Below, piece by piece: positions 5,030-57,801 of a stretch of DNA of 64,000 nt (position 1 is the stretch's first letter; each line of letters starts with the position of its first letter). Location: NCBI GenBank assembly GCA_964555245.1, contig CAZKRI010000042.1, positions 2,567-66,566 of the forward strand, read 5' to 3'. The notes under the pieces are model-generated. The model ran no database searches. It worked only from the letters and a program-made list of their open reading frames with translations, and was not told the DNA's origin. Source of the DNA: an uncultured Myxococcales bacterium (lineage in GTDB: Bacteria; Desulfobacterota; Binatia; UBA1149; SPBQ01). The position numbers and the translations under genes are program-made.

Positions 5030-5033
5030 GTCC

Positions 5034-6080: not shown

Positions 6081-6102
6081 CCGAGGGAGCACCGGCGGAT
6101 TC

Positions 6103-21616: not shown

Positions 21617-21647
21617 TGTCGTGTCCTTTCTTTCCGCTGCACTTGGG

Positions 21648-21845
21648 CTACTTCAGCGAGGCGGTGACCTTCTCGATCTTGCCGGTGAACGTGAACGGCA
21701 CGTGGTAGTCCTCGCTGACCGGCGTACCGGTGTCCTCGCCGATATCGAGGGTCTCGTCTAGCGACACGCAGACCGGAATGGGGCGTTCCACCCGACCCGT
21801 GGCGGACGCGCCCTTGCTGGCAGCGCTCAGCTCATGTCGAAGCAA
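21648..21845 (-). pseudogene. C-terminal remnant of a second arylsulfatase (paralogue of 363-2852)
   Basis: SLDETLDIGEDTGTPVSEDYHVPFTFTGKIEKVTASLK aligns with the C-terminus of the intact sulfatase (SIDESFDVGIDTRTGVDDSYELPFRFTGKIDKLTFKLG). No upstream catalytic domain remains. Confidence 0.7.
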
Positions 21846-26377: not shown

Positions 26378-26547
26378 CTCCTACGCACGCACCCCGGACG
26401 GCCGTCACATTGTCGCGCCGACGCGACGGCGTGTAAATGCCCGCGGCCACGCTTTTCCATAGGGAGCCCAAGTTCCTGGGGGCTTGACTACCCCCGGTTG
26501 GGCCGCGATGGTTCCACTCCCCAACCGTGGTTGGGGGGAGGTAACGC

Positions 26548-38223: not shown

Positions 38224-39132
38224 TCAGAACTGCACGATAGTGTCGAAGGTCAGTCGAAACTGCGTGATGTCTTCGCGATGAGAAACCGGAAACTCGCCGG
38301 CCGCCCCGAACATGAGGTATCGATTGAAACGATAGCGTGCTCCTCCGGCCATGGTTGCCACCGTGCCCGAGTTGGTGCTGCCGAAGTTGAACAGGTCCAT
38401 GCCTTCGAAGCTGCTGCCGAGCGCCCCGGAGTCGGTGCGCGTCCCGCTTGCGACCGTCGTCACGATGTTGCCCTCGAACACGCCGTACCAGTTGGGGAAC
38501 ACCTCGTGGTCGAGATGAAACGCATAGTGGAACAGCGTGCTGTCGTGGTCGCCATCGAGCGCGACGTCGAAGCCGGCGCTGGTCTGGAAGCCCGTGCGCC
38601 AGCCCACGTGGGTGCCGTAGGTCGCGAACATGTCGAACATGCCCGCGCCGCCGCCCTGGAACTCGAGCTGCGCGCTCGCGAGGTCGCCGGCGGGCGCTTC
38701 GTAGCGGGCGCCGACCGTGAAGAAGTTGGCGCGCTCGGGCTTGGCGATCAACGCGTACTTGACGCCGAAGGCGACGTTCAGCGCTCCGTCGGCGTCCGGC
38801 AGTAGCTCACTGAAGTGGAGGTTGGCGTAGCCGTTCTTCGTCACGATCAAACCGAGCCGCTCGTTGACCGCGTAACGCAACTGAACGGCGCCGATGTTCG
38901 CGTAGCCGCCATCTGTCACCGTGAAGTCGTCCGGGATCAAGTTGAACATGTAGATGGGCCGGATCTCTGTGGTGATGTACGGGCTCTCGTTGAAGAACGG
39001 GCTCGTGATCGCCGGTACAGGATGCGGCGCTGTCGCCTCAGGGCCGGCCGCCAACGCATCGAGCGGCATGAGAACGGACGCTGCCAGCACGCAAATCCGC
39101 GCGCGCACGGCTCGGCCACGACGGTGCATCAT
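38224..39132 (-). CDS. outer-membrane beta-barrel protein (MetA/phenol-degradation-like OMP family suspected)
   Basis: Start at MMHRRGRAV (39132). Signal peptide ending ALAAGP. Alternating amphipathic strands. C-terminal ...TFDTIVQF ending in Phe. Confidence 0.55.
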   Translation of the reverse strand: MMHRRGRAVRARICVLAASVLMPLDALAAGPEATAPHPVPAITSPFFNESPYITTEIRPIYMFNLIPDDFTVTDGGYANIGAVQLRYAVNERLGLIVTKNGYANLHFSELLPDADGALNVAFGVKYALIAKPERANFFTVGARYEAPAGDLASAQLEFQGGGAGMFDMFATYGTHVGWRTGFQTSAGFDVALDGDHDSTLFHYAFHLDHEVFPNWYGVFEGNIVTTVASGTRTDSGALGSSFEGMDLFNFGSTNSGTVATMAGGARYRFNRYLMFGAAGEFPVSHREDITQFRLTFDTIVQF

Positions 39133-39519
39133 CTCTTCTTCCCCTTGATCCCGCCTTTCGCGGGCCAACCACAACCTCTGCGTGCTGCCGTGGTGCCGGA
39201 TCGTAAGGCGACAGACGCGGGCGCAGGCGAGGCTATTCAAGCAGAGCTCGTGCCAAACCCGCTTGTGCCGATGCGACGCCGGATTCGACGTCGGTCGCTC
39301 GACGCTCGCGCAGCACTCGATGTGCGCGTACGACGTCATCGCGACGCCGTGACGATGCTGGCGTCGTCGCGCTGCATTTCGGCTGGCACGCCTGAACGCA
39401 TGCGGGCGGACACGAGCATCTTCGCGCGCCGTAGGCGTGGGCCGCTTGGCCCAGCCTTTGCTCCACGATGGCCAGTAAGGTTCGCGGACGCCGCTCGCAG
39501 GGGCGGTGCGGGAAAACCT

Positions 39520-42024: not shown

Positions 42025-42058
42025 GGCCGGACGCGACGAACGATGCCGAGGTGAAACG

Positions 42059-43369
42059 ATGGACGCGCTAGACCGACGAAGGTTTCTCAAACTGATGGGT
42101 GTGGCGGGGCTGACGGCGACGATACCGTGGCCGCTGAGGCTGGCACGGGCCCAACTCACCGCCGATCCGTACACGGGGCCATTGTTCGTCACGATCGCGG
42201 CCAGCGGCGGCTGGGACCCGACCAGCTTCTGCGACCCCAAGGAGAACGTGCCGGGCGAGCGCGAGATCAACCACTGGTCGCGCACGGCGCAGGCGCAGAC
42301 GTTCCCGCGCAGCCCGGTCACCTACGCCCCGTTCGCCAACAACCAGGCGTTCTTTGGCCGGTTTCATCGCTACATGCTCGTCGTCAACGGAGTCGATTCT
42401 CAGACCAACTCCCATGACACGGGCGTCCGGTTCAACTGGAGCGGTCGCGAGGCGCCTGGCTACCCGGCTTTTGCGGCGATCGCCGCCGCGGTCTACGGAC
42501 AGAACCTGCCGCTGCCGTATCTGACCAACAGCTCGTTCCGTGAGACCGCCGGGCTGGCGACGTACACGGAGGTCAACAGCACTCGCGCGCTCCAAGACTT
42601 GGTCGACGTCAACCGGGTTTCCGAGAGCGAGCGCCTCTACCATGACGAGGACGAGCGTGCGCTGATCGAGAGCTACCAGCAAGCGCGCGTGGCGCGGCAG
42701 ATGAGCCGCCCGGGGCTGCTCCCGCGCGAACGCGCGGCGCTCGACAACCTCGCGTTCGCGCGCGCCAGCCGTGACCAGCTCCGCGCACTGCTCGTCGACC
42801 TTCCCGACCAGCTCGTCAATCCCGTGGACCGCGACGGCAACAACAACGCCCTGCTCCAGCAGGCGCAGCTGGCGCTGATCTGTTTCAACGCGGGGCTGAC
42901 CGTCGCCTGCGATCTGGAGACCGGCGGCTTCGACACGCACGGCAACCACGACACCGAGCATCGCAGCTCGCTGCAACGTCTGACCAACGGCATCGAGTAC
43001 CTGTGGGATACGGCCGAGGCGATGGGCTTGGCCGATCGCCTGCACGTGCTCATCAGCTCGGATTTTGGGCGCACCCCTTACTACAACGACGGCAACGGCA
43101 AGGATCACTGGCCAGTCGGCAGCGCGATCCTCATGAAGAAGAACGCGCCCTGGGGCGACCGCGTGGTGGGGCGTACCGACGAGGGACACAACGTCATCCC
43201 CATCGACCCCAACACGCTGGCGGCGCGGCCGGGCGTGGGCGGGGTGGTGTTGGGACCGGGACACGTGCACGAAGCGTTCCGGCGGATGGCCGGACTGGAC
43301 CGGCACCCGACGGCGTTGCGCTACCCGCTCAACGTCCCACCGGTAGATTTCTTCGGCACTGCCGTCTGA
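42059..43369 (+). CDS. DUF1501-family protein (sulfatase-like fold) with a Tat signal
   Basis: 436 aa. Twin-arginine signal MDALDRRRFLKLMGVAGLTATIPWPL. Confidence 0.7.
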   Translation: MDALDRRRFLKLMGVAGLTATIPWPLRLARAQLTADPYTGPLFVTIAASGGWDPTSFCDPKENVPGEREINHWSRTAQAQTFPRSPVTYAPFANNQAFFGRFHRYMLVVNGVDSQTNSHDTGVRFNWSGREAPGYPAFAAIAAAVYGQNLPLPYLTNSSFRETAGLATYTEVNSTRALQDLVDVNRVSESERLYHDEDERALIESYQQARVARQMSRPGLLPRERAALDNLAFARASRDQLRALLVDLPDQLVNPVDRDGNNNALLQQAQLALICFNAGLTVACDLETGGFDTHGNHDTEHRSSLQRLTNGIEYLWDTAEAMGLADRLHVLISSDFGRTPYYNDGNGKDHWPVGSAILMKKNAPWGDRVVGRTDEGHNVIPIDPNTLAARPGVGGVVLGPGHVHEAFRRMAGLDRHPTALRYPLNVPPVDFFGTAV

Positions 43370-43451: not shown

Positions 43452-46226
43452 GTGCCGATTCTCCGACCCGAGTCGCTGCTGGCGCTGGTCGTAGCGATTC
43501 CGTTCGTTCTGGCCGCAGCCGCGCTCCTGATCGGGAGCGGGGCGGGCGGACGCGCGGGCTGGCTGATGGTGGCGGCGGCAGCCGCCTCATTCCTGGGGTG
43601 CATCACGCTGGTGCCGGCCGCTTGGGAGGGGGCGTCGGTCGTGCTGGCCGCGCAGTGGATGCCCGCGATCGGCGTGACGTTCGCGCTGCGCGCGGATGCG
43701 TTCGGGCTGATGTTCGCGCTGCTCATCTCGGGCATCGGCACCCTGATCGGCGTCTACTCGATGAGCTACATGCCCGCCGTCTGCGCGCCGGCGCGACTGG
43801 TTCGTTACTACGCCGCCTTGCTCGCGTTCATGGGCGCGATGCTCGGAGTCGCTCTGGCCGATGACTTGATCCTGCTGTTCGTGTTCTGGGAGATCACGAG
43901 CCTCACCTCGTTCCTGCTGATCGGCTTCTGGGACGAGCACGAGGAGGCGCGCAACGGCGCCATGACCGCGCTGCAGATCACCGCGCTGGGTGGCATGGTG
44001 ATGATGGCCGGCATCGTCTTGGTCGGGATCACCTGTGGTACATTCAGTTTGCGCGCACTGGCACAGGATCCGGCCGTGCGCGACACGCTGGCCGCCTCGC
44101 CGGCCTTCGCTCCTGCCCTGCTGCTGCTGCTGGCCGGAGCGCTGACCAAGTCGGCGCAGTGGCCGTTCCATTTTTGGCTGCCGGGCGCGATGGTCGCTCC
44201 CACGCCGATCTCGACCTACCTGCACGCTGCGACGATGGTGCAGGCGGGCGTGTTCCTGATGGGTCGCTTGTTACCCATCTTCTCGGCTTCGCCCCTGTGG
44301 TTCGCCATCCTGGTGCCGCTCGGTCTGGGCACCTTTCTGACAGGGGCGATCGGGGCGCTGCGGGTCAGCGATCTCAAGGCGATGCTCGCGCGTACCACGG
44401 TGGCTTCACTCGGCCTGTTTACGTTCGGCTACGGAGTCGGCGCCAATGCTCAGGACGCCCTGCAGATCCTCTCGCACGCCGCCTACAAGGGTGCGCTCTT
44501 CCTGGTCGCCGGCATCATTGAGCACGCAACCCACACCCGCGACCTCCGGCGCTTGGGCGGTCTGCGGGCGCGCATGCCGATCACGTTCGCGATTTGTGTG
44601 GTCGCGGCAAGCGCGATGGCCGGGATCTGGCCGTCGCTGGGGTTTCACGCCAAGGAGCTCACCTACCACGGGCTCCTTCAGCTGTACGCCGTCGAACCGT
44701 TGTTGCGCTGGACGATGCTCGCACTGGTAGTCGCCGGGAATGCGTGCCTGGTGGCGGTCGCACTCACCTTGGTGGTGAAACCGTTTTTTGGTCCGCTCGG
44801 TGCCGAAGCCGCGCATGCTCACGAGGCCGGCCCCGGGTTGTGGCTGCCGCCGGCGGTTCTGGCCGCGGCGACTTTGGCCTTCGGCGCGATGCCGGAGGTT
44901 ACCGGACGGATGGTCTCGGCGTTCTCTTCGCGACCGGGTGCCGCCGTGCATCTCTCGCTAGCAGCGTCGGGCCCCGAGCTGCTTCTCACGTTGCTCACCA
45001 CCACTGCGGGCGTGGGCTTGTTCCTGCTGCGCAAGGCGATTGCGGCTCCTGCGCCGTCGCGTCTAACGATGCAGCGGCTGTGGGATGGGGCGATCGAGGC
45101 TACCACACGCGCGGCCACCGCGTTCAGCGGCCGATGGCAAAATGGCTCGGTCCATTGGTACTTCTCCGGCACGCTGGTCTTCACCGTCGGGCTTGCCGCC
45201 TACGCCTTGGCGCACCACGGCATCTCGCCGCGCATGGTGAGCATCGACCTGCACGAACTGCAGTGGTACGGGGCGAGCCTGTGCATGATGCTCGCGGTTT
45301 CGGCGGTGATGGTGGTGCGGTTCAACACGCGCGTGGCCGCTGCAATCGCGCTCACCACCAACGGCTTCCTCACCGCGCTCCTGTTCGTCGTCTATCGCTC
45401 GCCCGACATTCTGCTCACGCAGATCCTCATCGAGACGGTTTCGACGATCTTCATTCTGCTGATCTTCTACTTCATGCCGGCCTTCAAGCCCGAGAAGACG
45501 CCGGCGATCCGACGCACGGCCAATCTGACGATCTCGGTGGCGGTAGGGGCGGCGATGTTCGCGTTCGTGATGCTCAGTACCAGCCCGCAGTTTCGCGAGA
45601 CCAACAACCTCGGCCTCGAGTATCTGAGCCGTTCGCTCGCGGATGCCGGCGGCGCCAACGCGGTCAACGTCATCATCGTCGACTTCCGCGCGATCGACAC
45701 CAACGGTGAGATCACCGTCCTCATGATGGTGGCCTTGGTCGTCTTCGGTCTGCTGCGTGCGCGGCGGGCGGGACCGCGACCAGCGGTTTCGCCGCCGGAT
45801 CCCGTGGTGGTCCACGGCGACAGCCCGATCTTGCGCACGGCCGCCCGTTTCGCAGTTCCGCTGACCGCGTGGGTTTCGATCGTGATCTTCATGCAGGGGC
45901 ACAACCTGCCGGGCGGCGGCTTCATCGCCGGCGTGATGGGAGCGGCTGCCGGGGCCATGACCATGCTCGCCTTCGGGCTCGGTGCGGCGGTGCGGGTGCC
46001 GTGGTGGAAAGTGTCGGTGCTCGGGCTGCTGGCTTCGGTCGGCACTGGGATGGTGCCGTTCGTGCTCGGGCGCTCCTACATGGATCACGAGATCTTGCAC
46101 TTTCATCTTCCCATGATCGGACTCTACGAGCTGCCCACGGCGACGTTCTTCGACCTCGGCGTCTACATGATCGTGCTCGGCACGATCATGACGATGTTCG
46201 TCGAGCTGGGACAGGAGGGCAGCTAG
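43452..46226 (+). CDS. mrpA: Na+/H+ antiporter subunit A (with fused B domain)
   Basis: 924 aa, polytopic. NuoL/MrpA-like proton-pumping module, with the extra C-terminal MrpB-like domain typical of MrpA. Confidence 0.85.
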   Translation: MPILRPESLLALVVAIPFVLAAAALLIGSGAGGRAGWLMVAAAAASFLGCITLVPAAWEGASVVLAAQWMPAIGVTFALRADAFGLMFALLISGIGTLIGVYSMSYMPAVCAPARLVRYYAALLAFMGAMLGVALADDLILLFVFWEITSLTSFLLIGFWDEHEEARNGAMTALQITALGGMVMMAGIVLVGITCGTFSLRALAQDPAVRDTLAASPAFAPALLLLLAGALTKSAQWPFHFWLPGAMVAPTPISTYLHAATMVQAGVFLMGRLLPIFSASPLWFAILVPLGLGTFLTGAIGALRVSDLKAMLARTTVASLGLFTFGYGVGANAQDALQILSHAAYKGALFLVAGIIEHATHTRDLRRLGGLRARMPITFAICVVAASAMAGIWPSLGFHAKELTYHGLLQLYAVEPLLRWTMLALVVAGNACLVAVALTLVVKPFFGPLGAEAAHAHEAGPGLWLPPAVLAAATLAFGAMPEVTGRMVSAFSSRPGAAVHLSLAASGPELLLTLLTTTAGVGLFLLRKAIAAPAPSRLTMQRLWDGAIEATTRAATAFSGRWQNGSVHWYFSGTLVFTVGLAAYALAHHGISPRMVSIDLHELQWYGASLCMMLAVSAVMVVRFNTRVAAAIALTTNGFLTALLFVVYRSPDILLTQILIETVSTIFILLIFYFMPAFKPEKTPAIRRTANLTISVAVGAAMFAFVMLSTSPQFRETNNLGLEYLSRSLADAGGANAVNVIIVDFRAIDTNGEITVLMMVALVVFGLLRARRAGPRPAVSPPDPVVVHGDSPILRTAARFAVPLTAWVSIVIFMQGHNLPGGGFIAGVMGAAAGAMTMLAFGLGAAVRVPWWKVSVLGLLASVGTGMVPFVLGRSYMDHEILHFHLPMIGLYELPTATFFDLGVYMIVLGTIMTMFVELGQEGS

Positions 46227-46237
46227 TGGAGCTGCCG

Positions 46238-46585
46238 ATGGCCTTGGCGATCGCCGTGCTGTTCGCGGCCGGTACCTATCAGATCCTGCGGCCCAACTTG
46301 ATCCGGCTGGTCATGGGTTTCGGACTCTACTCGAACGCGACCAACCTCCTGCTCATCACCGTCGGCGGGTACACCCGCGCAGCCGGTGCGCCGTTCGTCG
46401 GGCAGGATCCGCGCTCGGCTGCCGGCCTCATGGACCCGCTGCCGCCCGACATCATCCTGACCGCGATCGTGATCAGCTTTGCCGTCAGCGCGCTGCTGCT
46501 GACGGTCTGTTACCGCGTCTATGCCGATCACGGCACCGATGATCCCCACCAGTTGCCCGTCGACGACGAGGCCGAGCCCGGATGA
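46238..46585 (+). CDS. mrpC: Na+/H+ antiporter subunit C (NuoK-like)
   Basis: ATG at 46238 (alternatively the GTG at 46226 that overlaps the mrpA stop). 115 aa, three TM helices: MALAIAVLFAAGTYQILRPNLIRLVMGFGLYSNATNLLLITVG. Confidence 0.75.
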   Translation: MALAIAVLFAAGTYQILRPNLIRLVMGFGLYSNATNLLLITVGGYTRAAGAPFVGQDPRSAAGLMDPLPPDIILTAIVISFAVSALLLTVCYRVYADHGTDDPHQLPVDDEAEPG

Positions 46586-48117
46586 ACAGCCTGATCGTTC
46601 CGTTGCTCGTGCCGTTCGTGGCCGCCCTGGTGCTAGCGCTCCTCAACGGCTGGTCGCGCCTGGAGCGAGCCATTGCCGTGCTTGCCACCGTCGGGCTCAC
46701 GGCGTGGGCGTTCTGGCTGCTCTGGCTGGTGGACACTCACGGCATCCAGGCCACCGTCATCGGCGGCTGGCGGGCGCCATGGGGCGTGGCGTTCGTGGCC
46801 GACCGGCTCTCGGCGATCATGCTCTGCCTGTCGATGACCGTCGGCTCGGTGGTTACGGTCTACACGCTGTGGACCGTGACCGAACAGCAGCAGCGCTATT
46901 TCTTCTACCCGCTCATGCAGCTCACGTTGCTGGGGGTCAACTGGTCGTTCATGACCGGCGACGTTTTCAATCTGTTCGTGGCCTACGAGGTCATGTTGAT
47001 GGCCTCCTACGGCATGATGATGGTGGGGGCCAGCAAGGCGCAGGTACGCCAGACCTTCATGTACATCGGCATCAACGCGATCGGCTCCACCTTGTTCGTC
47101 GTTGCCTGCGGCGTGATCTACGCGACCACCGGAACGCTCAACATGGCCGATCTTGCCGTTCGGACCGAAGCTCTGGTGGGTGCGCGCGCGGCGATGGTCA
47201 CCGCCGGATCGATGCTGTTGCTGGTCGTCTTCTTGCTCAAGTCGGCGACGTTCCCGCTCATCTATTGGCTGCCCGACTCCTACCCGGTGGTGCCGGCGGG
47301 CGTCAACGGGTACTTCGCGGGCCTGCTGACCAAGGTGGGCGTCTATTCGCTCTTGCGCGTGTTCGTCATGCTGTTCCGCCAGGAGGGCGCCGACTTCGCG
47401 CTCGACGTGATCCTGTTGCTCTCGGGCTTCACGATGCTGCTGGGCGTGTTGGGTGCGATGTGTCAGTGGGAGATCCGCCGCATTCTGTCGTGGCACATCA
47501 TCAGCCAGGTCGGCTACATGGTGATGGGGATAGGCTTGGCCGGCAGCGCCGACCCGCGAGTCGTCGATCTCGCGATCGCCGGTACGATCTTCTACGTCGT
47601 GCACCACATCGTCGTGAAGTCGTGTCTATTTCTGGTCGGCGGAATCGCCGAACGCGTGAGCGGCTCCCAATCTCTCGAGAAGATGGGCGGCGTGTTGACG
47701 ATCGCGCCGGGCGTGGCAGGCCTGTTCCTGGTCGCTGCGCTCTCGCTCGCCGGCATGCCGCCGTTCTCCGGATTCTTGAGCAAGCTGGTGCTGCTGCGGG
47801 CCGGCTTGACCGGCGGCAACGTCGTCGTCGTGGCCGTTTCCATCGCGACGAGCTTCCTCACGCTCTACTCGATGACGAAGATCTGGACGCACGCGTTCTG
47901 GGGTGAGCCGCGCCGCGAGCGTGCCGTCGCGCGCTACCGGCCGCTGATGGCGCCGACCGCCGTGCTGGTGGTCTTTACGATCGTCATGGGCGTCTGGGGT
48001 CAGCCGTTCCTGGCGCTGGCGGCGCGCGCAGCCGGCTCGTTGAGCGATCCGCGCGAGTACATCGCGGCGGTCATGCAAGCCCACGTCGAGCACGCGGACG
48101 CGAGGTTGCCGCAATGA
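46582..48117 (+). CDS. mrpD: Na+/H+ antiporter subunit D (NuoM/N-like)
   Basis: 511 aa. Complex-I antiporter-like subunit. 4-bp overlaps with both neighbours. Confidence 0.85.
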   Translation: MNSLIVPLLVPFVAALVLALLNGWSRLERAIAVLATVGLTAWAFWLLWLVDTHGIQATVIGGWRAPWGVAFVADRLSAIMLCLSMTVGSVVTVYTLWTVTEQQQRYFFYPLMQLTLLGVNWSFMTGDVFNLFVAYEVMLMASYGMMMVGASKAQVRQTFMYIGINAIGSTLFVVACGVIYATTGTLNMADLAVRTEALVGARAAMVTAGSMLLLVVFLLKSATFPLIYWLPDSYPVVPAGVNGYFAGLLTKVGVYSLLRVFVMLFRQEGADFALDVILLLSGFTMLLGVLGAMCQWEIRRILSWHIISQVGYMVMGIGLAGSADPRVVDLAIAGTIFYVVHHIVVKSCLFLVGGIAERVSGSQSLEKMGGVLTIAPGVAGLFLVAALSLAGMPPFSGFLSKLVLLRAGLTGGNVVVVAVSIATSFLTLYSMTKIWTHAFWGEPRRERAVARYRPLMAPTAVLVVFTIVMGVWGQPFLALAARAAGSLSDPREYIAAVMQAHVEHADARLPQ

Positions 48118-48461
48118 GCCTATCCACGCTTTTGCGCCGTGCTTTCTACGCGGCCGTTTTCGTCGTGCGGTTCTTGAAGGAGCTCGCGCTGGCCAACTAT
48201 CAAGTCGTCAAGCTCGTGCTGGCGCCGCAGCTACCGATCAGGCCGGGCTTCGTGTCGATCCCGCTCGAGGCGCGCACGGACTTCGAGATCACCAGCTTCG
48301 CCAACGCGATCACGCTGACGCCGGGCACGATCTCGGTGCACATTCCCGACGAGCGCGACGCGATCGTCATCCATGCCATCGACGTTGGGCCCGACCTCGA
48401 CGGTTTGCGCAACTCGGTCAAGCAGTCGCTGGAGGCTCCGATTCTGCGCTTCATGCGCTAG
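48114..48461 (+). CDS. mrpE: Na+/H+ antiporter subunit E
   Basis: 115 aa. MnhE-like (N-terminal TM, then a soluble domain). Confidence 0.7.
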   Translation: MSLSTLLRRAFYAAVFVVRFLKELALANYQVVKLVLAPQLPIRPGFVSIPLEARTDFEITSFANAITLTPGTISVHIPDERDAIVIHAIDVGPDLDGLRNSVKQSLEAPILRFMR

Positions 48462-48472
48462 GAGGACCGCGC

Positions 48473-48748
48473 ATGAGCCCATTTCTCACGGCCGTGACCA
48501 TGTCGTGCCTGGCCGCGCTTCTCGCGAGCGGTGCGCTCGCCATGGTCCGCCTGGCGATCGGCCCGGACACGCCCGACCGCGCCGTGGCCTTCGATGCGCT
48601 GTCGATGGTGTTCGTCGGCATCGTCTGCACGCTGTGCATCCTGTGGCACTCCACGCTGTACTTCGACGCGGTCTGGATTCTCACGCTGGTCGGTTTCCTG
48701 GGAACGGCGGCGATCGGCCGCTATCTCGAGCGCGGGAGGCTCTTTTGA
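48473..48748 (+). CDS. mrpF: Na+/H+ antiporter subunit F
   Basis: 91 aa. Three TM helices. MnhF-like. Confidence 0.7.
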   Translation: MSPFLTAVTMSCLAALLASGALAMVRLAIGPDTPDRAVAFDALSMVFVGIVCTLCILWHSTLYFDAVWILTLVGFLGTAAIGRYLERGRLF

Positions 48749-49119
48749 TGCCTGCGCTCCTCGAGATCGCGATTGCCGTGCCGATGGTGCTCGGTACCTT
48801 CCTCATCGTCGTCACCGGGCTCGGTCTGCTGCGCCTGCCGGATGTCTTCTGCCGCATGCATGCGGCCGGTAAGGCCGGCACCATGGGTATGGGACTGCTC
48901 ACCCTGGCGACGGTGATTGCGTTCGCGGGCGGAGACCACAACGTCACCGTTCGCGGCCTACTCGCAATCGTCTTCCAGTTCATCACTTCACCGACCGCGA
49001 CCCACATCCTCGCGCGCGCATGCTACGTCGGAGGCTACCCGCTCTCGGCTCGCACTGCCGTCGATGAACTGCGTGCCTTCCTGCCCTCGCGCCCGGACAC
49101 CACGGTCAGCCGAGACTGA
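48748..49119 (+). CDS. mrpG: Na+/H+ antiporter subunit G
   Basis: ATG overlaps the mrpF stop (TGATG). 123 aa. MnhG-like (VPMVLGTFLIVVTGLGLLRLPDVFCRMHAAGKAGTMG). Confidence 0.75.
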   Translation: MPALLEIAIAVPMVLGTFLIVVTGLGLLRLPDVFCRMHAAGKAGTMGMGLLTLATVIAFAGGDHNVTVRGLLAIVFQFITSPTATHILARACYVGGYPLSARTAVDELRAFLPSRPDTTVSRD

Positions 49120-49347
49120 CCCCGCCTGCCCGGAGCGGAGCGATTCCCGCTTCTGACAACGGCCGCCACCGTCGTTGTCAGGTCTGGGAAAACAAAGTGG
49201 CACGAGCCCCGCTGCGTGACTGATGGGGGAGGGCTGCGCAAGGGCCTCTGCTGGTACGTTACGTGCTAGGTCTTACCCGCACTCGAACGAGGACCGACGT
49301 TCGGGTGTCGCGTCGTCACCATCGGCAGCCAAGACAAGGAGAGGCCG

Positions 49348-50988
49348 GTGCCAGGTCTGTCGCCGCTCGTGCTGATCATCTGTCTGGGCTTGTCGGCCGG
49401 CCTCACGGGTTGCCGAACCGACGGCGAGCGGACGGAAGCTCCGCCATCTCCATCCTCCGCATCACCGTCACAGCCGAACGAGAACGCCAAGGTAGCCGGA
49501 GACCCGCTCGTCCGTGGCGCCGCGATTTTCGAGCGCCAGTGCGTGGCGTGCCACGGCGCCAGCGGCCACGGCGACGGTGAAGCGGCCTACCTTCTCTATC
49601 CCAAGCCGCGAGACTTCCGCGGCGGCGTCTTCCGTTACACGTCGACCTGGGAAGGAACACCGACCGACGAAGATCTCTATCGAACGATCTCACGGGGAAT
49701 GCCGGGATCCGCGATGCCTTCGTGGGCCCATCTGTCCGAGAGCGACCGCCGGGCGCTAGTCGCGTTCGTCAAATCTCTGTCCGGGAAGCCGCTCGAGCTG
49801 AAGCCTGCCAAGGCGCCCGATCCCGAGTACGGCGAGCCCGGCGAGGGGCCGGTCCAGCTCGCCCCCGAGCCAGCCGATGACGCCGCCAGCCGGGCGCGCG
49901 GCGCCGAGCTGTTCGCGCAGAGCTGCGGCTCGTGCCACGGCGAGCGTGGCCAAGGCGACGGCATTCTCGTCGACAGTCTGCGCGACGCGAGCGATTATCC
50001 CATTCGCCCGCGCGATCTGACCACCGGCGTCTTCAAGGGCCCGGCCGAGCCGGAGGATCTCTACCGGCGCATTCTTGCGGGCATTCCGGACACCCCGATG
50101 CCGGCCAACCCTTACCTGGCAGGCGCCGATGCCTGGCACATCGTCCACTTCGTGCGTTCGCTCTCGAGCGACCTGTTGCGCGAGCGTGCCGAGATGAAAC
50201 GGTTTCGCGTCGAGGCGGTGCGTGTCGACGTGCTGCCGGACCATCCCGACTCTGGCAGGTGGAACGAGATCCCGGGCGTCGACCTGCACATGATGCCGCT
50301 GTGGTGGCGCTACAACCGCCCGGACTACGTCACCGTGCAGGCGGCTCACGACGGCGAGTCGATCGCCCTGCTGCTGGTGTGGGCCGACGACACCAACGAC
50401 GTCATGGTGGTGCGTCCGCAGGACTATCGCGACGCGGCGGCCGTGCAGTTCTCTCTCGATCCGGATCCTCCGTTCTTCGCGATGGGCGAGAAGGGCCGCT
50501 TCGTCAACATCTGGATGTGGAAGTCGGAACGTCAGGCCGATCTGGCCAGTTTCGGTGACGTCGACGAGCAGTATCCGAATGCCGGAATCGACTCGTATCC
50601 CAACCTGCGTGCCTCTCCCTACGAGCAGCCGATGCGCCACGCGCTGACGCTGCAGTCCGACCCCACGTTCGTCACTGGCTGGGGCGCGGGCAACATCGTC
50701 TCCGATCCCACCCGGCGCAGCGCCGCCGAGGACCTGAGCGCGCAGGGCTTCGGGACCCTGCGTGCGCGGCCGCCCATCGATCAGACGGTCGAAGCGCACG
50801 GTGTCTACGGAACCGGCTCCTATCGGGTGATGCTCGAGCGTTCGCTCGACGGCAACGGAGAGCACGCCATCGATCTGCGACCCGGAAGCTCGGTGGCCGT
50901 CGGTTTCGCGGTCTGGAACGGCGCCGCTGGCGACCGCGATGGCAAGAAATCGGTGACGATCTGGCAAGACCTCGTGCTGGCTCGATAG
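49348..50988 (+). CDS. lipoprotein-anchored gamma subunit of a type II DMSO-reductase-family enzyme: diheme cytochrome c fused to an EB_dh/NxrC-like heme-b domain
   Basis: 546 aa. Lipobox LSAGLTGC. Two class-I cytochrome c domains (CVACHG...M, CGSCHG...M). A C-terminal ~300-aa region resembling ethylbenzene-dehydrogenase gamma / NxrC / DdhC heme-b subunits. Confidence 0.6.
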   Translation: MPGLSPLVLIICLGLSAGLTGCRTDGERTEAPPSPSSASPSQPNENAKVAGDPLVRGAAIFERQCVACHGASGHGDGEAAYLLYPKPRDFRGGVFRYTSTWEGTPTDEDLYRTISRGMPGSAMPSWAHLSESDRRALVAFVKSLSGKPLELKPAKAPDPEYGEPGEGPVQLAPEPADDAASRARGAELFAQSCGSCHGERGQGDGILVDSLRDASDYPIRPRDLTTGVFKGPAEPEDLYRRILAGIPDTPMPANPYLAGADAWHIVHFVRSLSSDLLRERAEMKRFRVEAVRVDVLPDHPDSGRWNEIPGVDLHMMPLWWRYNRPDYVTVQAAHDGESIALLLVWADDTNDVMVVRPQDYRDAAAVQFSLDPDPPFFAMGEKGRFVNIWMWKSERQADLASFGDVDEQYPNAGIDSYPNLRASPYEQPMRHALTLQSDPTFVTGWGAGNIVSDPTRRSAAEDLSAQGFGTLRARPPIDQTVEAHGVYGTGSYRVMLERSLDGNGEHAIDLRPGSSVAVGFAVWNGAAGDRDGKKSVTIWQDLVLAR

Positions 50989-51003
50989 CCGGAAGGAAGA
51001 ACG

Positions 51004-54000
51004 ATGAAGCAGACTCGGAGCGACTTCCTTTTCATCTCCCGCCGCGAATTCTTGCGTTGGCTTGGCATGGGCGCCGGCATCAGCATGACAGGTCTGTCGC
51101 TGCCGTTGCGCGCGCTGGCTGCGGCTGACCCGGACCAGAATCCCTTGGCCGGGAGCGTGAGCCGCGACTGGGAGAAGATCTACCGCGACCAGTACCGCTA
51201 CGACAGCACGTTCGACTGGGTCTGCTCGCCCAACGATACGCATGCCTGCCGGGTGCGCGCCTACGTTCGTAACGGCATCGTCACCCGTCTCGGCTCGACC
51301 TACGACTACCAGACCTACGCTGACACCTACGGCAACCACGCGACTGCGAACTGGAACCCACGGCAGTGTGCGAAAGGCTTTACGTTCCATCGCGTGCTCT
51401 ACGGGCCTTATCGGTTGCGCCACCCCATCGTGCGCAAAGGCTGGAAGGCTTGGGCCGACGCGGGGTTTCCCGAGCTGACTCCCGAGCTGCGCGATCGCTA
51501 CCTCTTCACCCGGCGCGGCGACGACGAGTTCGTGCAGATCTCCTGGGACGACGCCTCTCGCGCCATTGCTCGCTGTCTCGTGACCATCGCCGAGCGCTAC
51601 AGCGGCGAGGCGGGCAAGCAGCGGCTCCTCGCGCAGGGCTACCAGCCCGAGATGGTCGCCGCCACCGAGGGCGCCGGCACGCGCTGCTGCAAATTCCGCG
51701 GCGGGATGGGATTGCTCGGCGTCATCGGCAAGTACGGAATGTACCGGCTCTCCAACTCGCTGGCGCTCTTGGACAGCAAGGTCCGCGGCGTTGAGCACGA
51801 GCAAGCGCGCGGCGGGCGCAACTGGTCCAACTACACCTGGCACGGCGATCAAGCCCCCGGCCATCCCTGGGTGCATGGGTTGCAGGCCTCCGACTGCGAC
51901 TTCAACGACCTGCGCAGCTCGAAGCTCATCGTGATGGACGGCAAGAATATGGTCGAGAACAAGCTCACCGACTCTCACTGGTTCATCGAATGCATGGAGC
52001 GCGGCGCCAAGATCGTGGTCATCGCGCCGGAGTACGGGCCGCCCTCGACCAAAGCGGACTACTGGATTCCCATCCGGCCGCAGACCGACGCGGCGCTTTT
52101 CCTCGGCGTCACCCGCGTGATGATGGATCGCGGTTGGTACGACGCGGACTTCGTCAAGGCGTTCACCGACTTTCCTCTGCTGGTCCGCAAGGACACGTTG
52201 AAACGGTTGCGCGCGCACGAGCTGTTCGCCGGCTACGCGAGCGCGCTCGCGCCCGACGGTCCCTCGATGCGGATCCAAGGGCTCAAGCCCGAGCAGCACG
52301 CCAAGCTCGGCGACTACGTGGTCTGGGACGCCACGAGCGGCGGTCCCAAGGCGATCAACCGCGATCAGATCGGCGCCCGCATGCGCCAGTCCGGTATCGA
52401 TCCCGCGCTCGACGGCGAGTACACGGTGACCCTGGCCGACGGCAAGCGGGTGGAGGTCGCCACGCTCTGGCGCCTCTATCAGGTTCATCTGCGCGACTAC
52501 GATCTCGACAGCGTCGCCGACATCACCCGCGCGCCGCGGGATCTCATCGAACGGCTGGCCGAGGACATCGCCACCATGAAGCCGGTGGCGATCCACCAAG
52601 GCGAAGGGATCAACCACTGGTTCCATGCCACCGAGATGAACCGCGCCGTCTACCTGCCGCTCATGCTCACCGGCAACATCGGCAAGCCCGGCGCCGGGTC
52701 CCACACCTGGGCGGGCAACTACAAGGCGGCGCTGTTCCAGGGCTCGCCGTGGAGCGGACCGGGCTTCAAGGGTTGGGTCGCGGAGGACCCGTTCGCGCCC
52801 AACCTCGACAGCGCACTCGACGGCAAAGACGTCCAGGCCCACGCCTATACCAAGGACGAGGAACCGGCCTACTGGAACCACGGGGACAAGGCCCTGATCG
52901 TCGACACTCCGAAGTACGGGCGCAAGATCTTCACCGGCACGAGTCACATGCCGACGCCGACCAAGTCGATCGTTTTCAACAACGTCAATCTCATCAACAA
53001 CGCCAAGTGGGCGTACGAGATGATCAAGAACGTCAATCCGATGGTCGAGATGATCGTCTCAGTCGACATCCAGATGACGGCCTCGATCGAATACGCCGAC
53101 GTGGCGCTGCCGGCCAACAGTTGGCTCGAGTTCGAGGGGCTCGAGATCACCGCGAGCTGCTCGAATCCGTTCCTGCAGATCTGGCGCGGCGGCATCCCGC
53201 CGGTGTTCGACAGCAAGGACGACATCGACATCATCGCCGGGATCGCCAGCGCGCTCGCGGAGGAGACCGACGAGACGCGCTTCCGCGACTACTTCGCGTT
53301 CGCTGCTGCGGACAAGCGCCACGTTTACATCCAGCGCTTGCTCGATAGCTGCACCACCACGCGCGGCTACAAACTCGACGACATCATGGCCGGGAAGTTC
53401 GGCCCCCCCGGCGGCGCGTTGATGCTGTTCCGGACCTATCCGCGCATCCCGTTCTACGAGCAGGTCCACTACGACGAGCCGTTCTTCACCGACACAGGGC
53501 GTCTCCATGCATACGCAGACGTGAACGAAGCGATCGAGTACGGTGAGAACTTTGTGGTGCATCGCGAGGGGCCCGAAGCCACGCCGTATCTGCCCAACGT
53601 CATCGTCAGCTCGAATCCGTTCGTGCGGCCAGAAGACTACGGCATTCCGGCCGACGCCGAGCACTGGGACGAGCGCACGGTGCGCAACGTCAAGCTGCCG
53701 TGGACGAAGGTCAAGAACACCAAGAACTTCCTGTGGGAAAAGGGATTCCAGTTCTACTGCTTGACGCCCAAGACCCGGCATCGCGTTCACAGCAGCTGGT
53801 CGAACGTCGACTGGCACATGGTCTACGACTCGAACTTCGGTGATCCCTACCGGCTCGACAAACGCGCCCCCTGCGTGGGCGAGCACCAGCTCAGCATGAA
53901 TCCACAGGCCGCTCGCGATCTCGGCATCAACGACGGGGACTACGTCTACGTCGACGCCAATCCGGCCGATCGGCCGTACATCGGCGCGACGCCGACCGAC

Positions 54001-54474
54001 CCGTTCTACCGCGTCTCGCGCTGCATGCTGAGGGTCAAGTACACCCACGCCTACCCGTACAACATCGTGATGATGAAGCACGCGCCGTTCATTGCCACCG
54101 AGAAGAGCGTGCGCGCGCACGAAACGCGTCCGGACGGGCGCGCTCTGTCGGAGAACACCGGCTACCAGGCCAACGTGCGCTACGGCTCGCAACAGTCGGT
54201 TACGCGCAACTGGCACATGCCGATGCACCAGACCGACACGCTGTTCCACAAGGCCAAGGTGTTCATGGGCTTCATTTTCGGCGGTGAGGCCGACAACCAC
54301 GCGGTGAACACCGTGCCGAAGGAGACGCTCGTGCGCGTGGCCAAGGCCGAGGACGGCGGGCTCGGCGGCGTCGGCATCTGGAAGCCGGCCACGACCGGCT
54401 ACTCGCCCGACAACGAGAACGAGTTCATGGAGCGGTACCTGCGCGGCGAGCTGGTGACCGTGCGGAAGGCCTAA
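51004..54474 (+). CDS. Tat-exported molybdopterin oxidoreductase alpha subunit of the NarG/NxrA (type II DMSO reductase) family; candidate periplasmic nitrite oxidoreductase/nitrate reductase
   Basis: 1156 aa. Twin-arginine signal SRREFLRWLGMGAGISMTGLSLPLRALAAA. N-terminal Cys/His cluster (H..C...C type) for FS0. The length matches NarG/NxrA rather than the ~900-1000 aa of Ebd/Pcr/Ser/Clr/Ddh alpha subunits. Confidence 0.75.
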   Translation: MKQTRSDFLFISRREFLRWLGMGAGISMTGLSLPLRALAAADPDQNPLAGSVSRDWEKIYRDQYRYDSTFDWVCSPNDTHACRVRAYVRNGIVTRLGSTYDYQTYADTYGNHATANWNPRQCAKGFTFHRVLYGPYRLRHPIVRKGWKAWADAGFPELTPELRDRYLFTRRGDDEFVQISWDDASRAIARCLVTIAERYSGEAGKQRLLAQGYQPEMVAATEGAGTRCCKFRGGMGLLGVIGKYGMYRLSNSLALLDSKVRGVEHEQARGGRNWSNYTWHGDQAPGHPWVHGLQASDCDFNDLRSSKLIVMDGKNMVENKLTDSHWFIECMERGAKIVVIAPEYGPPSTKADYWIPIRPQTDAALFLGVTRVMMDRGWYDADFVKAFTDFPLLVRKDTLKRLRAHELFAGYASALAPDGPSMRIQGLKPEQHAKLGDYVVWDATSGGPKAINRDQIGARMRQSGIDPALDGEYTVTLADGKRVEVATLWRLYQVHLRDYDLDSVADITRAPRDLIERLAEDIATMKPVAIHQGEGINHWFHATEMNRAVYLPLMLTGNIGKPGAGSHTWAGNYKAALFQGSPWSGPGFKGWVAEDPFAPNLDSALDGKDVQAHAYTKDEEPAYWNHGDKALIVDTPKYGRKIFTGTSHMPTPTKSIVFNNVNLINNAKWAYEMIKNVNPMVEMIVSVDIQMTASIEYADVALPANSWLEFEGLEITASCSNPFLQIWRGGIPPVFDSKDDIDIIAGIASALAEETDETRFRDYFAFAAADKRHVYIQRLLDSCTTTRGYKLDDIMAGKFGPPGGALMLFRTYPRIPFYEQVHYDEPFFTDTGRLHAYADVNEAIEYGENFVVHREGPEATPYLPNVIVSSNPFVRPEDYGIPADAEHWDERTVRNVKLPWTKVKNTKNFLWEKGFQFYCLTPKTRHRVHSSWSNVDWHMVYDSNFGDPYRLDKRAPCVGEHQLSMNPQAARDLGINDGDYVYVDANPADRPYIGATPTDPFYRVSRCMLRVKYTHAYPYNIVMMKHAPFIATEKSVRAHETRPDGRALSENTGYQANVRYGSQQSVTRNWHMPMHQTDTLFHKAKVFMGFIFGGEADNHAVNTVPKETLVRVAKAEDGGLGGVGIWKPATTGYSPDNENEFMERYLRGELVTVRKA

Positions 54475-54491
54475 CAAAGGAGACGCGAGCG

Positions 54492-54832
54492 ATGCCCTAC
54501 GACGAAGCGCAACCCGACGATCCGACGATGCTCGTCGGCGTCTCGGTGCCGGGGGATGAGGACTCGGTGCGCGAGATGGCCTACGCGTTCGCCGAGGAAT
54601 TCGCCGGCATGGGGTTCAGTCGCGAGCGAATTCTGGGCCTGTTCGACTCACCACACTACGGCGGCGCCCACGGCGCGCGGCTCCGGCTCGGCGAAGCGGA
54701 GATCGGGCGGATCGTCGACGAGAGCCTCAACGTCTTTGGCGCGGTCCGCTACGTCGTGCGGGATCAACCGGCGCCGCAGCGCTTCACGATTGACGCGGAG
54801 AGCGGATACGTCGTGACGGTCCGCGACAAGGG

Positions 54833-54836
<4 letters not shown>
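54492..54836 (+). CDS. small hypothetical protein encoded between the alpha and beta subunit genes
   Basis: 114 aa. Tight spacing: 18 bp after the alpha stop, 4-bp overlap with the beta start. No recognised motif. Confidence 0.5.
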
Positions 54837-56104
<1,268 letters not shown>

Positions 56105-56113
56105 GAGAATGCC

Positions 56114-56842
56114 TTGACCGAAACCGCTAGCAACCAGGCGCTTGCTCGTAGCACGGTGTACGCGGCGCTCGCGCTCGCATTGCTCCCTCCCGAGGATGAA
56201 GGGGACGCGAGCGCCGGCGTTTCGGCGACGCGGTCGCTGGTCAAGCTGTTCGAGACCTGCGGTGCGCCGGATCTTGCCGAACAGGCGCGAGGGCTGGGTG
56301 GCACGGCGCCGTCCACTGCTCGCTATCAGGAGCTGTTCGGGCACGCAGCAACGGCCACCGTCGTGTCCTACGAAACCCAGTACGGGACCGATACGCTCTT
56401 TCGGCAGCCGCACGAGCTAGCCGACATCGGCGCGTTCTTCGCGGCGTTCGGCCTCAAGTTGAACCCGGTCCAGCACGAACGCGCCGACCACATCTCCTGC
56501 GAGTGCGAGCTGATGGCGTTTCTCAGTGCCAAAGGGGCGCACGCCTTGGATCACGGTGACGAGTCGATGCTCGCGATTACGCGCAAGGCCGAGTCCTCGT
56601 TTCTCCACGATCACCTCGGGCGGTTCGCGCCCGCTCTGGGCGAGCGCCTGCACCGCCACGATGCCGGAGGATTCTACGGTAGAATCGGACGGTTGCTGCG
56701 CGGCTTCGTCGAATGGGACTGCGCGCGGCTGGGTGTGGAGGCCGGTCCATCCAGCCTGGAGCTTCGTCGGGCAGCCGAGGATGACGGGGCGCCAATGGCG
56801 TGCGGATCGCAAAGCGGCTGCTCCCTCGGCCGTTGCGAGTGA
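56114..56842 (+). CDS. TorD/NarJ/EbdD-like redox-enzyme maturation chaperone
   Basis: 242 aa, helical. TorD-family-like sequence. Lies directly downstream of the beta subunit. Confidence 0.6.
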   Translation: MTETASNQALARSTVYAALALALLPPEDEGDASAGVSATRSLVKLFETCGAPDLAEQARGLGGTAPSTARYQELFGHAATATVVSYETQYGTDTLFRQPHELADIGAFFAAFGLKLNPVQHERADHISCECELMAFLSAKGAHALDHGDESMLAITRKAESSFLHDHLGRFAPALGERLHRHDAGGFYGRIGRLLRGFVEWDCARLGVEAGPSSLELRRAAEDDGAPMACGSQSGCSLGRCE

Positions 56843-57801
56843 TGCGCGTTCAGATCGATCAAGACCTCATCGAAGAATCGGTCCATGCGGCGATGATCGG
56901 ACACTCCGAGACCGAGGCGTTCCATCGCCAGCGGGAGTCTTGCTATGAGGCGCCGCCGGAAGAGCGGGATGCCCGGTTTGCCGGGTGCTTTCGGGGTTGG
57001 TTCGAGCGCCTTCATCTGGCTCGGCCCATCGACGCCGCGCTAGGGGAGCAACCGACCATCGCCGAGCGAGTCGCGCAGGTAAGGATCTCGGCCGCGCGGC
57101 GGAGCAAGGAGCAGGGAGTCGAGCTGTTCGTTGCGCCACCAGAACTAGGCGCTCCCGATCCGGAATCACGCATGCTGCACATCCGGGTTCTAGCCGCCGT
57201 GTTGGCCGACTCGGATGCCACGCTCGCCGTGCTCCGGCCTGAGCTGCTCCACGTCGCGGACATGCTCGACCCGGGTTTCGGCTACCGGCCACATCTGCCG
57301 GCCGCGCAGAGCGGGCCCACCCACGATCGCATGCTGCTCGACCGTTACTCGGCGCTCTGGGCCGCGAGCGTCATCGGTCGTTTGGTGCGCGCGGAGGTGA
57401 TGGCCCAGCCGCATCGCCAGCGGGCGCTGGCAAGGCTCGCCCGTACGTTCCCGATGCACGCCGAGCGGGCGGAGGAAGTCTTCGGCTTCCTTCTCGATGG
57501 CGCGCGGCCGACCCATGACGAGATCGTCGCGCTCGCGATGAGTCCTCGCTCGCTCGGGGACGAAGCCGAGGGACGAGATCGGTCGCATCGCTGCAGTCTG
57601 TGCGGCTGTCCGACGACTCGCTTCGAGCCGGCGGACCGGCTGCTCGACATCGTCGAGATCATTCGCACGTACACGCCAGCGTGGACCGTCGACGATGCCG
57701 TGTGTCCGCAGTGCGCGGACCTCTGCCGGGCGCGGGTGAGAGCGGTCTCAGCTCCAGTCGAGGTCAGCGAGCTTCGCGCACGGTATCACGCTCCCCGTTG
57801 A
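56842..57801 (+). CDS. hypothetical protein with a C-terminal 4-Cys zinc-ribbon-like motif, last gene of the NXR-like cluster
   Basis: ATG overlaps the chaperone stop (TGATG). 319 aa. C-terminus ...HRCSLCGC...CPQCADLC. No family recognised. Confidence 0.5.
   Translation: MRVQIDQDLIEESVHAAMIGHSETEAFHRQRESCYEAPPEERDARFAGCFRGWFERLHLARPIDAALGEQPTIAERVAQVRISAARRSKEQGVELFVAPPELGAPDPESRMLHIRVLAAVLADSDATLAVLRPELLHVADMLDPGFGYRPHLPAAQSGPTHDRMLLDRYSALWAASVIGRLVRAEVMAQPHRQRALARLARTFPMHAERAEEVFGFLLDGARPTHDEIVALAMSPRSLGDEAEGRDRSHRCSLCGCPTTRFEPADRLLDIVEIIRTYTPAWTVDDAVCPQCADLCRARVRAVSAPVEVSELRARYHAPR

Follow-up and report, generated by a model that had tools for sequence, protein, structure and literature searches.

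A stretch of 64,000 nucleotides (here called the window) from a contig of an uncultured bacterium carries six consecutive open reading frames (ORFs) on the + strand at 49348-57801, which were confirmed with the ORF list and the translations. In order, they encode a gamma subunit, the catalytic alpha subunit with its molybdenum cofactor (Mo-bisMGD), a small protein (ORF3), an iron-sulfur (Fe-S) beta subunit, a chaperone of the TorD/NarJ family and a last protein (ORF6). The region is very probably a single operon for a periplasmic nitrite:nitrate oxidoreductase of the NXR (nitrite oxidoreductase) type.

The gamma gene (49348-50988, 546 amino acids) starts with GTG behind an AAGGAG Shine-Dalgarno sequence. 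It is followed by the alpha gene (51004-54474, 1156 amino acids), ORF3 (54492-54836, 114 amino acids), the beta gene (54839-56104), the NxrD-like chaperone gene (56114-56842, 242 amino acids), which starts with TTG behind AGGAGA, and ORF6 (56842-57801, 319 amino acids, ATG start). From 5' to 3' the spacers are 15, 17, 2, 9 and -1 nt, and therefore the six genes were regarded as one translationally coupled operon; Shine-Dalgarno-like sequences lie upstream of gamma, alpha, ORF3, beta and the chaperone. Beta would have 421 amino acids from the ATG at 54839 and 423 from the GTG at 54833, and the ATG is probably the true start, judging from an N-terminus (MAHVHNW...) that is like that of Kuenenia NxrB. 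ORF6 most likely starts at ATG 56842, in a TGATG overlap with the chaperone stop, and not at GTG 56800; an identical 319-amino-acid protein in the protein collection (P0127) matches this start. Third-position guanine plus cytosine (GC) content of the six ORFs is 0.77-0.89, which is coding-like and typical for genes of the window.

An earlier sequence-only reading of this DNA had placed six genes of these types in this order and at these coordinates, and they were found so. It had described alpha as a protein of 1156 amino acids with a twin-arginine signal (S-R-R-E-F-L is seen in the translation) and the last ORF as Cys-rich (CxxC...CxxC is present), and both descriptions stand. The beta motifs that it named, NWQLGR (within HNWQLGR) and FAFVFNINRC, are there too, while its beta length of 423 amino acids should probably be 421. 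The GC content of about 68% that it gave is too high: the window has 65.8% and the cluster 65.6%, without a compositional break.

Catalytic and electron-transfer subunits

Alpha belonged to the molybdopterin oxidoreductase superfamily by Pfam and NCBIfam. Among known structures it matched NxrA of Kuenenia stuttgartiensis (PDB 7b04_B) with 1738 bits, residues 11-1153 of the query lying on 3-1146 of the chain, and the next-best structures were PcrA (200 bits), EbdA (164 bits) and NarG (112 bits). Its identity to Kuenenia NxrA was about 61% over 898 aligned residues. Kuenenia NxrA itself is about 60% identical to the Nitrospira and Nitrospina enzymes, about 40% to those of Nitrotoga and Hydrogenobaculum, and about 20% to Nitrobacter-type NXR, NarG and EbdA (PMC8387239). 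Thus alpha stands at the distance of the accepted periplasmic NXRs.

The active site is matched as well. In Kuenenia NxrA the FS0 cluster is held by C67, D71, C75 and C115, N70 positions the substrate and D275 is the Mo ligand (PMC8387239). The alignment with 7b04_B gives a numbering offset of +7, by which the equivalents in alpha are C74, D78, C82 and C122 (3Cys/1Asp), Asn77 and Asp282; all of these residues were invariant in the alignment of the window protein with nine relatives (A1). NarG and EbdA use His at FS0, and the substrate Asn is Ile in ethylbenzene dehydrogenase (PMC8387239); alpha is set apart from NarG and EbdA because its FS0 site is Cys/Asp. The active-site loop NWSNYTWHGDQAPGHP of alpha is identical in Kuenenia. 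At motif level, the N-terminus shows a twin-arginine translocation (Tat) signal, SRREFLR, followed by a hydrophobic stretch and ALA-AA, and RRxF[LIVM] was present in 64 of the 73 complete alpha homologues.

Beta matched Kuenenia NxrB (7b04_A) over its full length with 591 bits, and the next matches had 195, 187 and 170 bits. It also matched Fer4_11 and TIGR03478, and was classified by Pfam and NCBIfam with the 4Fe-4S dicluster proteins. It has 15 Cys, every one aligned with a Cys of 7b04_A, and this is the number that three predicted [4Fe-4S] clusters and one [3Fe-4S] cluster would need. Beta has no signal peptide, and therefore it is presumably exported together with alpha by Tat hitch-hiking.

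Gamma is a fusion protein. Its N-terminus carries, at motif level, a lipoprotein-type signal (...LSAGLTGC) with the lipobox L-T-G-C and Cys22, followed by a Pro/Ser-rich linker. A dihaem cytochrome c module with CVACH at 65 and CGSCH at 193 comes next; Pfam found two cytochrome c domains (residues ~55-275) and EB_dh, and TIGR03477 was matched too. Residues 56-273 matched PDB 6h5l_B with 136 bits, and this chain is Kustc0457, a Kuenenia dihaem cytochrome c that forms a complex with Kustc0458, a nitrite-reducing HAO-like enzyme. Residues 329-545 matched residues 99-317 of NxrC (7b04_C) with 104 bits. The haem ligands of Kuenenia NxrC are M155 and K305 (PMC8387239), and Met379 and Lys534 of gamma align with them as the predicted axial ligands of haem b. 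All 64 complete gamma homologues of the related loci had exactly two CxxCH motifs, and their N-terminal signals varied between lipobox-type and plain Sec-type.

Such a fusion has a precedent in the "alt_NxrC" proteins of Nitrospina, which have one to three haem c sites and a haem-b domain (PMC3578206). The fused architecture is thus already known; the peculiarity of the window operon is that it has no gamma other than the fusion protein. Brocadiaceae-like contigs (L084-L100, L126) encode both a plain haem-b NxrC and, about 5 kb upstream of its gene, a homologue of the trihaem gamma. The homologue is full length with 29-31% identity over residues 7-546, and therefore the fused type also occurs in anammox-like nxr regions.

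The fifth protein matched PF02613 (Nitrate_red_del) and TIGR03482 (NarJ/TorD), which confirms the chaperone gene.

On the type of enzyme the sequence-only reading was supported. It had proposed a Tat-exported periplasmic NxrA/NxrB type and had set this apart from cytoplasmic NarGH and from the Ebd, Pcr, Ser, Clr and Ddh enzymes; the Kuenenia chains score as given above, and the other structures far lower (at most 200 bits for alpha and 195 for beta). The features that it had wished to see checked, namely the Mo-ligand Asp, a substrate residue (Asn77), the Tat motif of alpha and the lipobox of gamma, are all present, the last two at the level of motifs. NarGHI or a Nitrobacter-type NXR was rejected: the narG model TIGR01580 scored 142.7 (cut-off 1084), the narH model TIGR01660 scored 173 (cut-off 524), and the Tat motif is present. 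No NarI-like protein was found by Pfam among the six ORFs. A type II dimethyl sulfoxide (DMSO) reductase was rejected with 336.8 against a cut-off of 984.75 for TIGR03479, 248.2 against 480.7 for TIGR03478 and 121.6 against 169.85 for TIGR03477. Every curated NCBIfam model for NarG/NarH, Ebd and type II DMSO reductase was far under its cut-off. A Nap assignment was also considered and rejected.

Accessory proteins and distribution of the cassette

Neither ORF3 nor ORF6 matched a Pfam or NCBIfam family. ORF3 lacks a signal peptide; its N-terminus (MPYDEPDPxDP...LVGV) is conserved and its core has four helices, and the simplest guess is that it is a small cytoplasmic assembly factor. In the clade of the window it always lies between alpha and beta, and it also occurs in a few other subclades. 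Its profile gave no match in the anammox-like contigs or in the class with 55-56% alpha identity. An identification with kustd1701 or kustd1702 was rejected; the ORF3 profile, which is small and of limited sensitivity, matched nothing in the Kuenenia-like and other anammox-like contigs.

ORF6 is predicted to be a cytoplasmic protein with a zincin-like core and a C-terminal CxxC...CxxC zinc ribbon. In a profile search against 1.84 billion representatives the family had 1087 members, 651 of them at E <= 1e-30, and no Pfam domain was found in those matches that carry a Pfam record. The alignment across the gene-order classes showed the signature H-E-x-x-H-x-x-D-M, F-x-Y, an invariant R, W, T-H and CxxC...CxxC. 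The window protein reads P-E-L-L-H, with Pro133 in place of the first His and with E134, H137 and D140 kept. At the first His position the members of the clade have P, H, R, G or A, but E134, H137 and D140 do not vary, and the Pro133 variant is common to the closest database relatives. Because the first His of HExxH is replaced, a catalytic metalloprotease role is doubtful for the ORF6 subclade of the window. Identical ORF6 was found only on two short Logan contigs (SRR9952630 and SRR9952632), and an exact search with alpha matched no contig.

In a Kuenenia-like contig the ORF6 profile also matched the ORF that immediately precedes nxrA (L083, E 3.8e-39), and it had matches in other classes too. 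In L083 this gene (2-652, Ga0154756_1088) adjoins an nxrA that is 97% identical to Kuenenia NxrA, and by its position alone it is probably kustd1699. Kustd1699 is a hypothetical protein which is co-regulated with the nxr cluster and highly abundant in the Kuenenia proteome (PMC6423088). A "putative zinc finger" protein is among the genes conserved in the nxr regions of Kuenenia, Nitrospira and Nitrospina (PMC3578206), and ORF6 probably corresponds to it. As ORF6 has no signal peptide, we infer a role in cytoplasmic maturation or quality control. The conservation suggests an NXR-associated accessory protein, a conserved and unannotated partner of periplasmic NXRs. The sequence-only reading had seen ORF3 and ORF6 as two uncharacterised ORFs embedded in the cluster; they are conserved members of the operon, and ORF6 also adjoins nxrA in anammox-like and other NXR-type contigs.

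Alpha had 3227 scored database relatives. The best 120 were 79-83% identical and came from many sources, and several of them carry the name nitrate/nitrite oxidoreductase alpha subunit. When one genome of each GTDB species was scanned, 383 related loci in at least 10 phyla were found. Gene order and conservation were counted by tblastn with the six window proteins in the best 80 of these 383 loci, whose alpha is 72-82% identical to that of the window. Their hosts belong to Methylomirabilota/Rokubacteria, Binatia, Acidobacteriota, Gemmatimonadota, Latescibacterota, Eisenibacteriota, Planctomycetota, Omnitrophota, Hydrogenedentota, Neomarinimicrobiota and others. The order gamma-alpha-ORF3-beta-chaperone-ORF6, all on the same strand, was kept in 80 of 80 loci. 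Counted over the loci with sequence enough to contain the gene, gamma was found in 65 of 66 (median identity 59%), alpha in 80 of 80 (80%), ORF3 in 74 of 74 (51%), beta in 67 of 67 (78%), the chaperone in 61 of 61 (42%) and ORF6 in 52 of 53 (36%). No alpha identical to that of the window was present among the GTDB species representatives, and the window copy stands on its own branch, where the identity to the representatives does not exceed 45% for ORF6 and 71% for gamma. When the loci were ranked by their fast-evolving accessory proteins, no phylum came out consistently as the nearest.

The flanks are not conserved. Among some 50 loci flanked by 3 kb or more, the commonest neighbours were hemerythrin (12 loci), Rrf2 regulators (11), cupredoxin-like proteins (9), MoaA (7) and COX1/COX2 (6); the cupredoxin-like protein was called by sequence inspection, and Pfam gave only a CarboxypepD_reg-like domain for it. 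No wider neighbourhood of oxidase, transporter or regulator genes was conserved, and no flanking family occurred in more than 12 of these loci. Therefore the cassette is self-contained.

A second set of 80 more loci was taken from metagenome contigs scanned with Kuenenia NxrA, and tblastn, profile searches and a tree of alpha sorted them into classes of gene order. In the following, A and B stand for alpha and beta, C for a plain haem-b gamma, Cc for the fused trihaem gamma, D for the chaperone, and 3 and 6 for ORF3 and ORF6. The window clade, including an Omnitrophota/Planctomycetota branch at 72-74%, has alpha 72-82% identical to the window and the order Cc-A-3-B-D-6, and is monophyletic. 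Brocadiaceae-like contigs (alpha 84-85% to Kuenenia) have Cc...C-B-D-6-A and Scalindua-like contigs (~65% to Kuenenia) have C-B-x-D-6-A, these taxon names being inferred solely from the identity to Kuenenia NxrA and the percentages of PMC8387239. Other NXR-type contigs (alpha 55-58% to the window) have 6-A-B-D-C or A-B-(D)-C, and small groups (58-65% to the window) have A-3-B-D-C or A-3-B-D-Cc. A rough neighbour-joining tree of alpha, made from unnamed metagenome contigs and one outgroup and without support values, placed the window inside a monophyletic clade with its own operon order. The anammox-like and the other NXR-type groups stood apart from this clade, and every one of these groups was far from the outgroup, which is 41% identical. 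The ratios of the alpha scores against the PDB references agree with a place among the periplasmic NXRs.

So the gene order, which the sequence-only reading had called unusual, is the standard of the clade, and the lineage that it suspected to be undescribed has more than 3000 database relatives, many of them named nitrate/nitrite oxidoreductase alpha subunit, besides the 383 GTDB loci. Comparable genes on metagenome-assembled genomes (MAGs) have been discussed as putative NXR (PMC10732223, PMC8141241). A literature search for a dedicated study of the window clade found MAG surveys only, and no member that has been characterised biochemically or physiologically. The window operon is an ordinary, somewhat divergent member of a clade that has been sequenced from hundreds of uncultured bacteria. 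Precedents have been published for the enzyme type, for the fused gamma, for the chaperone and for the zinc-finger-type partner. The clade can be recognised reliably by its operon order, and the trihaem gamma is its regular gamma subunit.

Some of the loci hold further molybdoenzyme genes. In a Methylomirabilota MAG the six-gene operon is followed directly downstream by a second, divergent alpha-beta-gamma-chaperone cluster (L011, 16596-22862), with an alpha of 41% identity, the order A-B-C-D and neither ORF3 nor ORF6. In three other loci (L037 249-6174, L066 1517-6183, L128 3630-7160) a distant molybdoenzyme pair lies upstream on the opposite strand, with an alpha-like protein of 24-29% and a beta-like protein of 31-34% identity.

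Surroundings of the cluster

Directly upstream of the cluster is a complete operon for a Mrp-type cation/proton antiporter (43452-49119, +), encoding a fused MnhA/B-like protein of 924 amino acids, an Oxidored_q2 protein (MnhC-like), MnhD, MnhE and MnhG. It was not linked to the cluster in other loci. The 228 nt between this operon and gamma (49120-49347) presumably hold the promoter or other regulatory sites. A scan of the cluster for consensus promoters and terminators found nothing convincing in 49120-49347. Inspection of the sequence showed a perfect inverted repeat of 9 bp, CTGACAACG (49153-49161) and CGTTGTCAG (49173-49181), which the scan did not detect; it lies 34 nt past the mnhG stop and 167 nt ahead of the gamma start. 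The element at 49153-49181 might act as an operator or as a terminator that lacks a T-tract.

On the other flank, genes for HIT, shikimate dehydrogenase, PPDK and an aminoacyl-tRNA synthetase lie on the opposite strand. A bc-type complex is encoded at 4481-7677 (+), with Rieske protein (4481-5029), cytochrome b (4866-6080) and a multihaem cytochrome c (6103-7677), and it is a possible redox partner of an NXR-type enzyme in either direction. Two large exported proteins with PSCyt3/DUF1588-type and DUF1501 domains are encoded at 38806-43369 (+). Such a pair is typically seen in Planctomycetota-like genomes and in some genomes of Acidobacteriota or Gemmatimonadota, and gives no more than a weak hint at the taxonomy. 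A wax ester synthase/DGAT gene (24929-26380, -) and a gene with a DUF3604 match of 796 bits (19706-21652, -) are unrelated to the operon. No rRNA, tRNA or Rfam match was found in the window.

Direction of the reaction and comparison with known systems

From the gene content, homology, ligands and operon conservation described above we infer, largely by analogy, the export route, the electron path, the direction of the reaction and the roles of ORF3 and ORF6. The chaperone, and probably ORF3 and ORF6, would act on alpha and beta in the cytoplasm during Mo-bisMGD and Fe-S insertion, and the twin-arginine signal of alpha would carry the alpha-beta pair through Tat. Gamma would be exported separately and lipidated at Cys22, and would anchor the complex on the periplasmic side of the cytoplasmic membrane. 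At the Mo liganded by Asp282, nitrite would be oxidised or nitrate reduced, with Asn77 positioning the substrate as in Kuenenia. Electrons may pass between Mo, FS0, FS1-4 of beta, the Met/Lys haem b and the two haems c of gamma, and the c haems would exchange them with the soluble cytochrome c pool and not with quinones.

As a whole, we somewhat favour an operon for a periplasmic NXR that mainly oxidises nitrite in vivo. By analogy the enzyme is expected to be reversible, and we hold it about evenly balanced whether it chiefly oxidises nitrite as a facultative supplementary electron source for cytochrome c and a terminal oxidase. Oxidation is favoured by the identity of alpha to Kuenenia NxrA (~61%), which is as high as that of the nitrite oxidisers Nitrospira and Nitrospina (~60%), by the haem-copper oxidase genes that adjoin the operon in 6 loci, and by the c-type haems, the expected acceptors of electrons at +430 mV (PMC3578206). 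Several points weigh on the other side. The direction is unreadable from sequence, and no terminal oxidase or CO2-fixation genes lie within the 64-kb window. We know of no nitrite oxidisers among the hosts of the clade (Methylomirabilota/Rokubacteria, Acidobacteriota, Gemmatimonadota, Binatia, Latescibacterota, Planctomycetota and others). The commonest neighbours, Rrf2 regulators and hemerythrins, fit a regulation responsive to nitrite or nitric oxide (NO) for either direction, and the signal-peptide, lipobox and Tat assignments are predictions from motifs. Purified Kuenenia NXR reduces nitrate in vitro about 25 times faster than it oxidises nitrite (PMC8387239).

With less confidence, the same enzyme may be a periplasmic, cytochrome c-dependent respiratory nitrate reductase, which we regard as a real possibility. 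Electrons would then run from quinol through a Rieske/cytochrome b complex to cytochrome c, the c and b haems of gamma, beta and alpha, and energy would be conserved at the bc complex and not at the enzyme. The bidirectional Kuenenia enzyme with its faster turnover of nitrate in vitro agrees with this, as do the mainly heterotroph-like host phyla and the Rrf2 and hemerythrin neighbours, which recall N-oxide stress or denitrification regulons; the Rieske-cytochrome b-multihaem c complex of the window (4481-7677) could feed the cytochrome c, and Suarez et al. were unable to assign a direction to similar MAG genes. However, the characterised enzymes with at least 60% identity to Kuenenia NxrA (anammox, Nitrospira, Nitrospina) all oxidise nitrite in vivo, known nitrate reducers of this superfamily branch (Methanoperedens, Thermogutta) are separate references in the published tree, and cytochrome c oxidase genes adjoin the operon in some loci. 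It is very improbable that the likeness to NXR is superficial and that the cluster encodes a type II DMSO reductase-family enzyme acting on something else (chlorate, perchlorate, selenate, dimethyl sulfide or a hydrocarbon). A soluble haem-b gamma is common to type II enzymes, and TIGR03479, TIGR03478, TIGR03477, TIGR03482 and the Ebd and Pcr structures were matched weakly, but these matches are 5- to 10-fold weaker than the NXR match and under the curated cut-offs, and the substrate Asn, the Cys/Asp FS0 site and the active-site loop are kept as in Kuenenia. Still less probable is a cassette that was recently acquired horizontally and is possibly inactive, to which its presence in many phyla with unrelated flanks and the lost first His of HExxH in ORF6 could point. 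The accessory proteins share no more than 23-65% identity with their counterparts in the GTDB loci, which argues against a recent transfer; moreover, the GC content of the cluster equals that of the window, the six ORFs are intact with conserved ligands, and the closest database relatives of ORF6 share its Pro133.

Nitrite oxidation is thought to be the sole biological route to nitrate and has been credited to a handful of specialist genera. If the oxidative direction holds in these common phyla of soil and groundwater, the list of nitrate producers needs revision, and if the enzymes are nitrate reductases instead, marker-gene surveys that count nxrA as "nitrification" overcount. The window adds no new kind of evidence on this direction, being one more copy among hundreds of public genomes. 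Speculatively, and rather doubtfully at present, the clade could be a large unrecognised guild of facultative nitrite oxidisers in at least 10 mostly uncultured phyla, including the organism of the window, with a lipid-anchored trihaem-gamma NXR wired to cytochrome c and with ORF6 (the kustd1699 family) as a universal maturation factor of periplasmic NXRs. The ORF6/kustd1699 family is worth experiments.

Among known systems, the window enzyme resembles NXR-ABC of Kuenenia (kustd1700/1703/1704; 7B04), with full-length homology of alpha and beta and homology of the haem-b domain of gamma. The two share the Tat signal, the 3Cys/1Asp FS0 site, the Mo-ligand Asp, the substrate Asn, the 15 Fe-S Cys and the Met/Lys haem b. 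Unlike the window gamma, Kuenenia NxrC has no fused c-type haems. The Kuenenia enzyme forms tubules with NXR-T in the anammoxosome. The gene order is kustd1699-A-1701-1702-B-C in Kuenenia and C-B-D-ORF6-A in Brocadiaceae-like contigs, against Cc-A-3-B-D-6 in the window, and no ORF3 homologue was detected with the ORF3 profile in the Kuenenia-like contig, unlike the window.

Nitrospina gracilis and Nitrospira defluvii also have a periplasmic, Tat-exported NxrA with NxrB (PMC3578206), and their accessory set is similar: a TorD-like chaperone, a putative zinc-finger protein and alternative gammas with haem c and haem b (PMC3578206). This likeness is drawn from published descriptions and not from direct sequence comparison. 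The Nitrospina operon is nxrABC with a plain haem-b NxrC, and its c/b fusions are encoded elsewhere, whereas in the window the fusion is encoded by the first gene and is the only gamma.

The type II DMSO reductases (EbdABC 2IVF, PcrAB 4YDD, Ser/Clr/Ddh) are likewise periplasmic alpha-beta-gamma enzymes with a Tat signal, a TorD-like chaperone and a Met/Lys haem b. However, the window alpha is about 200 residues longer and matches them with only 164-200 bits, its first FS0 ligand is Cys and not His, its second is Asp, the substrate Asn is present, and the gene order is neither ABDC nor ABCD.

The closest counterparts are the putative NXRs of uncultured Planctomycetota/KSB1, Rokubacteria and other MAGs (PMC10732223; PMC8141241), which belong to the same clade, with alpha 72-83% identical and the same six-gene order. 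The window does not differ from those loci in anything substantial, but it stands on its own branch and has Pro at the first His of the ORF6 HExxH motif.

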